A stretch of DNA of 64,000 nt from Alphaproteobacteria bacterium. Lineage in GTDB: Bacteria; Pseudomonadota; Alphaproteobacteria; UBA828. Every line of letters starts with the position of its first letter. Position 1 is the first letter of the stretch. The notes below the pieces were generated by a model. The model was not told the DNA's origin. It did not search any database and saw only the letters and a list, made by a program, of their open reading frames with translations. The stretch covers positions 1,376,001 to 1,440,000 of the forward strand of contig OZ243972.1 of assembly GCA_965214705.1 (NCBI GenBank). The letters run 5' to 3'. Below are positions 43,342-46,300 of the stretch, piece after piece. The translations under genes were made by a program, and so were the position numbers.

Positions 43342-46300
43342 ATGGTGCAGTCTCGCAAGGCCCACCGCAGGCTACGTCGCAGTTTCAGCCGCATTCCCCA
43401 GGTTGCCTCGATGCCGAACCTCATCGAGGTGCAGAAGCGTTCCTACGAGTTCTTCCTTCAGCGGGAGATAGAGGGCGACCGGCGCTCCGAGTCCGGGCTT
43501 CAGCGGGTCTTCAAGTCGGTGTTCCCGATCAGGGACTTTTCCGACAAAGCGTCGCTGGAGTTCGAGCGTTACGAGTTCGAGGATCCCAAGTACGACGTCG
43601 AGGAATGTCAGCAGCGCGGCATCACCTACGCGGCCCCGCTCAAGGTTACGCTGCGTCTCGTGGTCTGGGACGTGGACGACGACAGCGGGCTCCGCTCGGT
43701 GCGGGACATCAAGGAGCAGGACGTCTACATGGGCGACATGCCGTTGATGACCGACAACGGCACCTTTGTCATCAACGGCACCGAGCGGGTGATCGTTTCC
43801 CAGATGCACCGCTCGCCGGGAGTCTTCTTCGACCACGACCGGGGCAAGACACACAGCTCGGGCAAGTATCTCTATGCCGCCCGGATCATTCCCTATCGGG
43901 GCTCCTGGCTCGATTTCGAGTTCGACGCCAAGGACTTGGTGTTCGTGCGCATCGACCGGCGCCGCAAGCTGCCGGTAACGGTGCTGCTGCGCGCGCTCGC
44001 CATGGATACGGAGGAGATCTTCGATCATTTCTATTCCAAGGTGATGCACACCCGGACCGAAGACGGCTGGAAGGCGCCGATCGAGCCCGAGCGCCTGCGC
44101 GGCGTGAAGCTGCTCGACGATCTGGTGAACGCGGCCACCGGCAAGACGGTGGTCGAGGCCGGGCGCCGCGTGACCGCGCGCGTGCTCAAGAAGCTGAGCG
44201 ACGCCGGCATGACCGAGCAGCTGATCAGCGCCGACAAGCTGATCGGGCAGTACGCCTCCGACGACATGATCAATACCGAGACCGGAGAGGTGTTGATCGA
44301 GGCGGGCGGTGAAATCGAGGAGAAGACGCTCGAATCCCTGGAGGAGTGCGGCATCGACCAGATCTCGGTCCTCGGCATCGACCACATCAATGTCGGCGCC
44401 TACATCCGCAACACCATCAGGCAGGACCGGACGACGAGCCGCGAAGAGGCGCTGCTCGAGATCTACAAGGTGATGCGGCCGGGCGAGCCGCCGACGGTCG
44501 AGACTGCCGAAAAGCTCTTCTACGACCTGTTCTTCGGCAAGGCCCGGCTGAAGGATGAATCGGTCGAGGCGCGCGCCGAGCCGGAAGCGAGCGCAGACGT
44601 GCTCGTTCGGCTGAAGCGGGCCGAGATGGGCGAGGTCTGGATCCTGGAGCAGGAGGAAGACTGGCTCAGGATTATCGTCCCGGCCGCCGACCGGCCCGAC
44701 GAGATCGAGGCGCCGGTCTGGGTGCCGGCGGAGGCCTTCGCCACGCTCGGCTCCGAGCGTTACGACCTCTCCGACGTCGGCCGGGTGAAGATGGGCATGC
44801 GGCTCAATCTCGACGGCAACGACGAGCTCAGGGTGCTGCGGCGCAAGGATATCGTCGCAGTTGTCACGACCCTCGTCGCGCTCAAGGACGGCATCGGCGA
44901 TATCGACGACATTGACCACTTGGGCAACCGCCGGGTGCGCTCGGTCGGCGAGCTGATGGAGAACCAGTACCGGATCGGCCTGCTCCGGATGGAGCGCGCA
45001 ATCCGCGAGCGGATGAGCTCGGTCGATATCGACACCGTCATGCCGCACGACCTGATCAACGCCAAGCCGGCGGCGGCGGCGGTGCGTGAGTTCTTCGGCT
45101 CGTCCCAACTCTCGCAGTTCATGGACCAGACCAACCCGCTGTCCGAGATTACGCACAAGCGGAGGCTCTCTGCGCTGGGCCCCGGCGGGCTCACGCGCGA
45201 GCGGGCAGGCTTCGAGGTGCGCGACGTGCACCCGTCTCACTACGGGCGCATCTGCCCGGTGGAGACGCCGGAGGGCCCCAATATCGGGCTGATCAACAGC
45301 CTCGCCACCTACGCGAGGGTCAACCGCTACGGCTTCATCGAGAGTCCCTACCGCAAGGTAGAGGAGGGCCGCCAGACCGACGAGGTGATCTATCTCTCCG
45401 CGATCGAGGAGGCGAAGTACACCATCGCCCAGGCCAACGCGAAGACGGACGAGAAGGCCGCCCTCAGCGAGGATCTGGTGAGTTGCCGGCGCAACGGCGA
45501 GTTCGTGATGTCGGCACCCGACAACATCGAGTACATGGATGTCTCGCCGAAGCAGCTGGTCTCGGTTGCCGCCGCTCTCATCCCCTTCCTCGAGAACGAC
45601 GACGCGAACCGGGCGCTGATGGGCTCCAACATGCAGCGCCAGGCGGTGCCGCTGGTGCGCGCGGAGGCGCCGCTGGTCGGCACCGGCATGGAAGAGGTGG
45701 TGGCCCGAGATTCCGGTGCTGCCATCGCCGCTCGGCGCACCGGAACGGTGGAGCAGGTCGACGCCACCCGCATCGTGGTCCGCGCCGAGGGCGAGCAGGG
45801 CGGCAATGCGGAGTCCGCCGGGGTCGACATCTACAACCTGTTGAAATTCCAGCGCTCCAACCAGAGCACGTGTATCACGCAGCGGCCGCTGGTGCGGGTC
45901 GGCGAACGGGTGGTAGCGGGCCATGTCATCGCCGACGGGCCCAGCACCGACTACGGCGAGCTTGCGCTCGGGCGCAACGTGCTCGTCGCCTTCATGCCGT
46001 GGAATGGCTACAACTTCGAGGATTCGATCCTGATCTCCGAGCGGCTGGTCAAGGACGACGTCTTCACCTCGATCCACATCGAGGAATTCGAGGTGATGGC
46101 GCGCGACACCAAGCTGGGCCAGGAGGAGATCACCCGCGATATCCCCAACGTCGGCGAGGAAGGCCTCCGCAACCTGGACGAGGCAGGCATCGTCTACATC
46201 GGTGCCGAGGTCCAGCCCGGCGACATCCTGGTCGGCAAGATCACGCCCAAGGGCGAATCTCCGATGACGCCGGAAGAGAAGCTGCTGCGCGCGATCTTCG

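Follow-up and report, generated by a model that had tools for sequence, protein, structure and literature searches.

The window analysed in this study is a stretch of 64,000 nucleotides (nt) from an alphaproteobacterial genome (assembly GCA_965214705.1, contig OZ243972.1, positions 1,376,001 to 1,440,000 of the forward strand), and it harbors the gene rpoB (43342..47661, +), which encodes the beta subunit of RNA polymerase. Within this gene lies an in-frame insertion of 72 amino acids (aa 399-470; 44536..44751, +), which was delimited by translation, length conservation, a fold model, and structure and profile matches, and which interrupts the conserved sequence of the beta2 lobe shortly after the gate loop. 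The insert is a genuine domain of the gene and not an assembly error; modelling showed it to fold as a bacterial SH3 (SH3b) barrel; and it was shown to be restricted to a few uncultured alphaproteobacterial lineages. An earlier reading of the letters by a model (the sequence-only reading) had pointed to this insert; its observation was confirmed, and its interpretation was partly supported.

The rpoB open reading frame of 1439 aa matched all six Pfam families of the RNA polymerase beta subunit (Rpb2-type; RNA_pol_Rpb2_1, 2, 3, 45, 6 and 7, with E values of 1e-24 to 3.5e-137). Upstream of the insert, translation revealed the gate-loop motif MRPGEPPT (aa 378-385; 44473..44496, +), which corresponds to E. 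coli beta 370-377 in an ungapped match; we take the name gate loop to refer to about residues 368-378 of E. coli beta. The motif is followed by a helix of 13 residues (44497..44535, +; helix 237-248 of the lobe model described below), whose K, Y and D positions covary with the insert. The insert starts 13 residues past the T of MRPGEPPT, in keeping with the distance of about 12 that had been read from the letters. Translation of 44476-44811 placed the 72 residues in frame between LFF and SERYDLS exactly as had been quoted, and SERYDLS (44752..44772, +), located by translation and alignments, restarts the conserved beta2-lobe sequence. Relatives without the insert read LFF-D-x-ERYDLS at this site, and thus the net gain is 71 residues. 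Since query residues 5-63 align without gaps to E. coli beta 335-393, the break falls after E. coli F390. The G+C content of the insert (0.655-0.69) equals that of the remaining gene.

Public sequencing runs (here X numbers; G numbers denote sampled genomes, G000 being that of the window, and f numbers denote families) provided independent copies of the site. Fourteen runs contained at least half of the words sampled from the stretch, and contigs of four of them, from four different studies (X5, X6, X13 and the RNA library X15), were compared with it. The entire insert with both junctions was covered by a 497-nt contig of X5 with 0 differences and by a 794-nt contig of X6, labelled a sponge metagenome, with 6 differences, and contigs of X13, labelled a marine metagenome, bridged each junction. 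A further X5 contig, from a different organism, has 152 nt in place of 365 nt (window 44504-44868), which is 71 codons fewer, and is therefore read as the insert-less rpoB of another organism in the same sample. The RNA library X15 gave one 194-nt contig running from the gate-loop helix into the insert; its 15 differences indicate a relative, the bins at 44712-44879 were uncovered, and the contig bears neither way on transcription.

The insert is judged to be beyond chance because its length is constant in 28 of 28 genomes, independent contigs bridge it, and the site is empty in the four solved beta chains whose alignments were inspected. An artefact, that is, a misassembly, an intein or some other mobile element, can hardly be credited at all: contigs of three independent studies bridge the insert, it also occurs in single-contig genomes of the genus, and it is in frame with host-like G+C. 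Moreover, no second copy of the domain was found elsewhere in the genome (single sequence; profile at E<=10), and the flanking repeats were just short, chance-sized ones. The intein was also considered as a candidate in its own right and was rejected, as the sequence-only reading had supposed. No Hint or intein family was among the Pfam matches; the segment starts with G, A or S and ends with LG, EG, ER, EV, RL and similar, never with His-Asn; its 72 aa are far under the size of an intein; and it is predicted to form a conserved barrel.

The surrounding genes, tuf, nusG, rplK, rplA, rplJ, rplL, rpoB and rpoC, show the usual arrangement. The gene rpoC (47713..51954, +; beta', 1413 aa, assigned with Pfam) has no companion large insertion, as residues 3-1375 gave one continuous match to 7ye1_D 4-1384. 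The gene nusG, upstream in the rplKAJL-rpoBC cluster, has a conserved core of 176 aa (40418..40948, +), which was recognized by Pfam NusG, by translation and by homologues across the order. Its open frame extends about 100 codons farther upstream (from a TTG at 40118; 40118-40417), with the conserved NusG core beginning near 40418, and the true start is uncertain because the 18 N-terminal residues after M85 vary among relatives. A NusG paralogue with about 28% identity to the operon NusG lies outside the window, on contig 2 of the same genome (302752-303216, -), and most genomes of the order have a paralogue of this kind. An antisense open frame of 1204 codons runs across rpoB (window 43372-46986, -) and is taken as the usual by-product of high G+C and not as a gene.

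Fold and sequence family of the insert

An AlphaFold2 model of the insert, built from a 28-row alignment, was a confident all-beta barrel of seven strands with a mean predicted local distance difference test score (pLDDT) of 92.1 and a predicted template modelling score (pTM) of 0.80. In a structure alignment (VIA-align) against 48,161 representative chains, the five top chains (Z>=8) were all SH3b domains, with root-mean-square deviations (rmsd) of 1.3-1.9 A over 57-62 of the 72 residues, as follows: the SH3_3 domain of an endolysin (4krt_B, Z 9.4, rmsd 1.7 A), NlpC1 (6bim_A, Z 9.4), an SH3-like bacterial-type domain (9ovi_B, Z 9.0), a putative dipeptidyl-peptidase VI (3pvq_A, Z 8.7) and the cell-wall-binding domain of the endolysin LysPBC5 (6ilu_B, Z 8.3). 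Below these came further SH3-like domains of endolysins, autolysins and internalins, and eukaryotic SH3 domains followed at Z of about 5-6. The Foldseek comparison, which the sequence-only reading had proposed as a check, likewise returned SH3b entries in all top ten places (TMq 0.66-0.74, best E 0.018).

The sequence evidence pointed in the same direction but was weak. Among 28 members of the order, SH3_4 and SH3_3 were the sole recurring weak Pfam matches at E<=1, in 12 (best 0.0036) and 4 (best 0.0023) of them, respectively. A profile search over 1.84 billion representatives at 50% identity gave 16 matches, 9 of which were multi-SH3_3 proteins of the wall hydrolase type (E 1.3e-5 to 4.2e-4, each score being a sum over 3-6 repeats). 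Full-length RpoB bearers are collapsed into insert-less clusters and are thus invisible among the representatives, so that this set shows no more than fragments and SH3_3 proteins. The nearest ESM Atlas clusters were SH3_4/SH3_3 (0.94-0.96), with 127-142 shared features, which is under the 170 typical of same-family pairs. The resemblance to SH3b and SH3_3 domains that had been noticed in the residue pattern was thus borne out by the model and by the structural matches to bacterial SH3 wall domains, with the weaker profile matches in agreement.

The BEAN fold (CATH 3.90.105.10), found in other beta insertions, was considered as well; no RNA polymerase beta or BEAN entry was among the structural matches listed, in which the top rows were all SH3b, and a family not listed there is not thereby excluded. 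The extracytoplasmic, cell-wall context of SH3b domains does not apply to the insert, which is embedded in RpoB and whose 43 significant homologues are all RpoB or fragments of it. It was consequently filed as an SH3b-fold domain outside the usual context of the family, and not as a certified member of Pfam SH3_3 (PF08239) or SH3_4 (PF06347).

Distribution and evolutionary history

In the GTDB order of the window, 44 of 49 species genomes gave a continuous match across the insert, which was exactly 72 aa long in all 28 genomes from which it was extracted. Four of the other five had no rpoB match at all (completeness 67, 78, 84 and 67%). The fifth, G021, has an insert-less rpoB on contig C108; in the RpoB tree this gene stands at a distance from the order, next to G129, a member of another family, and the genome has no nusG of the order's type, so the contig is probably mis-binned and does not represent a loss.

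Outside the order, a class-wide sample of 301 genomes was searched with an insert-less query; 275 genomes matched, and split matches were examined further. About six more families of alphaproteobacteria had a homologous insert of 72-75 aa at precisely this site: f97 (G143), f120 (G166, G321 and G436), f162 (G208 and G350), f177 (G223), f183 (G229) and f35. In f35 it was borne by one genus (G386), G081 of the same family was without it, and the match of G257 to the insert-less query was single and unsplit. The unpublished genomes G088 and G286 served as insert-less members of the class-wide count only, G088 also as one insert-less tree row, and no claim depends on either.

With a profile of the insert, 12 of 401 genomes of the class sample matched at E<=1e-5, always once and within a frame of 1437-1599 aa, and none of 400 other genomes of the phylum matched. 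All 43 significant matches in a collection of 5.8 billion proteins were RpoB or RpoB fragments. A single-protein query of genome contigs, which reaches close relatives only, found the insert in named records that were all metagenome-assembled genomes (MAGs), 12 of them titled Alphaproteobacteria or Rhodospirillales bacterium and 1 labelled Gammaproteobacteria. Furthermore, none of the 44 distinct beta sequences of the Protein Data Bank matched by a 192-residue query around the site carried the insert, and the flanks abutted in all four solved-chain alignments inspected (e.g. 7ye1_C 399/400). The description of the insert as lineage-specific therefore stood insofar as it is confined to a few alphaproteobacterial lineages and absent from the 400 other genomes of the phylum, and gave way insofar as about six other families share the site.

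Two side observations concern the same lobe in other genomes. The f120 RpoB proteins (G321, G166 and G436; loci L088, L089 and L106) have frames of 1562-1599 aa in which the SH3b insert is kept, MRPGEPPT and the helix before the gate loop are replaced by unrelated sequence (LREGGVWMGEEG), and more than 100 extra residues lie upstream. In G312 (f103; L076 / L084), a separate insertion of 14 residues is found about 20 residues farther downstream in the lobe, near the site of the Firmicute insertion beta-ln5.

The history of the insert was traced in an RpoB tree of 64 rows (quick IQ-TREE, LG+G4), from which the insert and 25 upstream columns had been removed and which included, as insert-less genomes, the 30 most similar to the query. 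The order formed a clade (97 in the Shimodaira-Hasegawa-like approximate likelihood ratio test, SH-aLRT), with the insert in all 27 of its rows. Over the whole tree, the trait requires at least four changes, as gains or losses, and an approximately unbiased (AU) test rejected a single clade of bearers (p 0.0036, for a group named after inspection of the tree). A second RpoB tree agreed; G223 and G386 clustered with the insert-less G076 and G081, and G143 fell within a large insert-less clade. In the tree of the insert itself, the order was split from the rest, and G143 joined f162 and f183. Either one old gain followed by several precise losses or transfer by recombination of a block comprising the helix and the barrel may account for this pattern.

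Constraint, mounting and possible role

The ratio of nonsynonymous to synonymous substitution rates (dN/dS) was calculated for 18 genomes of the genus (151-153 pairs), with flanks of 57 codons each. It was 0.34 in the insert and 0.065 and 0.072 in the flanks; the insert is under purifying selection that is five times more relaxed than in the core. Residues L26, R28, W35, P49, P60 and W62 of the insert were invariant in all 28 genomes of the order. Among 23 lineage representatives, L26, W35 and W62 were invariant, position 28 was R or K and position 38 was E or D in every row, and most conserved positions lay in strands, with variable loops at 17-24 and 50-59. Between families, identity was 15-48% for the insert versus 51-83% for the RpoB backbone.

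These values bear on the main rival explanation, in which the barrel is a neutral or merely stabilising passenger: an SH3b-coding segment would once have entered the lobe at a surface loop that tolerates insertion, would have no specific ligand, and would persist owing to its independent folding and to the harm that an imprecise loss would do to an essential gene. Conservation chiefly in core positions with freely varying loops, the fivefold difference in dN/dS and the low identity between families all agree with such a passenger, as does the existence of close kin without the insert (G076 beside the bearer G223, and G081 beside the bearer G386 of the same family). However, a dN/dS well under 1, a constant length (72 aa across the order and 72-75 aa elsewhere), R/K28 and E/D38 in 23 of 23 rows, and a co-adapted face of the adjoining helix all run counter to it. 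On balance we consider a passenger unlikely, if the most serious of the competing explanations.

The fast-evolving surface loops are also the sole feature that agrees with a shield or decoy against phage proteins binding the beta lobe, an idea raised in the sequence-only reading. Phages target this part of beta, as exemplified by T4 Alc and SI1. However, the insert is old and has become fixed across entire orders and families, unlike the usual strain-variable traits of an arms race, and a role of this kind appears very improbable.

The insert had also been described as acidic. Its net charge ranges from -9 to +2 among the 23 representatives and is -5 to -9 in the close relatives of the window only, so acidity does not hold as a property of the domain. 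Contact with nucleic acid, in which the barrel would touch the non-template strand, upstream fork DNA or nascent RNA in the manner of KOW, Tudor and Sm barrels, has its appeal from position, the insert lying 13 residues from the gate-loop motif; the gate loop guides non-template DNA, and small SH3-like barrels often bind nucleic acids. However, the charge argues against such binding, there is no conserved basic patch (R/K occurs only at 4 and 28 and partly at 13), and the best structural matches were all peptidoglycan-binding SH3b domains, with no KOW or Tudor domain among the matches listed. We regard this function as improbable, and the barrel would accordingly be no nucleic-acid binder.

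To examine the mounting of the barrel, the whole lobe was modelled (391 aa, from an alignment of 52 rows); the insert kept a pLDDT of 90-96, and the overall pTM was 0.83. In this model, helices 218-229 and 237-248 form a helix-loop-helix with the gate loop at its tip, and the barrel starts one residue beyond the second helix. Three positions of that helix tell bearers and non-bearers apart almost without exception. At position -8, all 33 bearers have K/R, as does 1 of the 30 non-bearers; at position -5, all 33 bearers have Y/H/F (Y in 31), and none of the 30 non-bearers has Y; at position -4, all 33 bearers have D/E/N, whereas 28 of the 30 non-bearers have G/S. The three positions (K, Y and D; i, i+3, i+4) share one face, and their covariation with the insert was read as indicating that the barrel is packed against the helix. 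When the 391-aa lobe and NusG were modelled as a complex, the score was 0.00 in both runs, made without controls, which speaks neither for nor against binding.

Taken together, these data suggest an old, in-frame acquisition of an SH3b barrel between the helix after the gate loop and the SERYDLS strand of the beta2 lobe. The barrel would be held rigidly on one face of this helix and would add to the surface of the lobe where the gate-loop helical hairpin is rooted, next to the docking cleft of NusG and sigma region 2. There, it may provide a lineage-specific surface for contact with a protein or may tune the closure of the cleft sterically. This role is proposed because of the position and by analogy with other lobe insertions (E. 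coli SI1 and Firmicute beta-ln5). We favor this reading by a small degree, taken as a whole from the identity as an SH3b barrel to the rigid mounting on the beta2 lobe and the action as a lineage-specific surface module, by protein contact or sterically.

Several points weigh against it. As to the fold, best Z values of 7-8 are common for unmatched models, according to the aligner's own caution, and Foldseek gave no match at E<=0.001. In Pfam, SH3_4 scored 16.3 bits against a gathering cut-off of 24.1 (E 0.0083), no SH3 family reached its cut-off, and none of six distant variants of the insert matched any SH3 family at E<=1. As to function, the fivefold higher dN/dS speaks for looser constraint than in the core, and apart from R/K28 and E/D38 the conserved positions resemble an SH3b core, which fits a structural module equally with a docking module. 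As to the mounting, we infer both the packing of the barrel on the helix and its place in the whole enzyme from the models and the covariation. The counts overstate the independence of the observations because the bearers are kin, belonging to about seven family-level lineages, and helix and insert could have been inherited or transferred as one block.

A more specific form of the favored surface module can be imagined, in which the barrel, at the foot of the gate-loop hairpin, is a docking site built into beta for an unrecognised transcription factor or for part of sigma or NusG, and the block of helix and barrel has also moved between distant rpoB genes by homologous recombination. This combination is doubtful at present. 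If it were true, these alphaproteobacteria, which are uncultured and in part associated with sponges, would have such a partner coupled mechanically to the closing of the DNA cleft.

Comparison with known insertions and SH3-like domains

The major beta lobe has been described as the site of many lineage-specific inserts and as a possible factor-binding platform, and the Firmicute insertion beta-ln5 binds the Tudor domain of PcrA (bioRxiv 10.1101/2021.06.06.447298, in the part covered here). A survey of BEAN and HABAS domains (PMC11515920), which leaves out inserts shorter than 50 residues, names five sites of insertion in beta; it places the majority of the inserted domains that it describes in the BEAN fold and one E. 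coli insert in another superfamily. SH3 occurs 0 times in its text, and no insert of the present type is described in the part that was covered. The folds described for beta and beta' inserts in the covered parts of these sources (PMC11515920 among them) are BEAN/BBM2, the sandwich-barrel hybrid (HABAS) and the coiled coil. A literature search on SH3 combined with RNA polymerase inserts found nothing relevant; the catalogue of Lane and Darst 2010 (beta-i1 to beta-i13) lies outside this comparison and may list an insert at this site.

The present insert has the features of a lineage-specific beta insertion, as an in-frame extra domain between universally conserved blocks in some lineages only. 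The genome set behind the catalogue of beta-i1 to beta-i13 is said to predate these MAG lineages. The closest parallels are E. coli beta-i4 (SI1, 'dispensable region I') and Firmicute beta-ln5 (beta-i5), which are likewise in-frame, independently folding and placed in surface loops of the same lobe. All three are conserved in their lineage, less so than the core, and are absent from most bacteria. In the sources as far as covered, beta-i4 and beta-ln5 are known or proposed factor-binding platforms, and their sites and fold differ from those of the present insert. Whereas the present insert follows F390, beta-i4 precedes the gate loop (E. coli 225-343), and the insert of Firmicutes (Oceanobacillus 286-370) starts about 20-25 residues past the present site, beyond RYDLS; the LFF of the present RpoB corresponds to about residues 258-260 of the B. 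subtilis chain (6wvj_C 209-263 = query 9-63). The fold of beta-i4 and beta-ln5 is BEAN/BBM2 (CATH 3.90.105.10), in contrast to the SH3b barrel of the present insert. The suspicion that the insert is not among the familiar ones was thus upheld within the covered parts of these sources and the 44 solved beta sequences.

The wall-binding domains of Pfam SH3_3/SH3_4 (the endolysin of phage phiSM101, 4krt; the NlpC/P60 hydrolases 3pvq and 6bim) share the fold of the insert and a weak yet recurring sequence similarity with it. Those domains are secreted or wall-associated, bind peptidoglycan and often occur in tandem, whereas the insert is a single copy in a cytoplasmic enzyme; unlike them, it stays below the Pfam cut-offs, and its significant relatives are other RpoB inserts only (43/43).

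Lineage-specific insertions are the main way in which bacterial RNA polymerases differ, and the few studied ones proved to be platforms for binding regulators. An SH3b barrel, otherwise a module for binding the cell wall, would add a fold class to the inserts of this enzyme, and the insertion site adjoins an element needed by factors of the NusG family. In addition, the insert offers a clean molecular marker of one uncultured order of alphaproteobacteria and of a few families besides. Given its patchy spread, one may ask whether it was lost repeatedly or whether recombination took place within a core informational gene.

Small beta-barrels also dock on RNA polymerase in trans, such as the NusG KOW domain, the RNA polymerase-interacting domain (RID) of CarD and Mfd, and the PcrA Tudor domain. 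These are SH3-like barrels at the surface of the enzyme, like the present insert, but they are carried by separate factors and none was among the structural matches listed, whereas the present barrel is part of beta itself. Set against the sources covered, the insert represents a new fold and a new site for lineage-specific insertions of the beta subunit.

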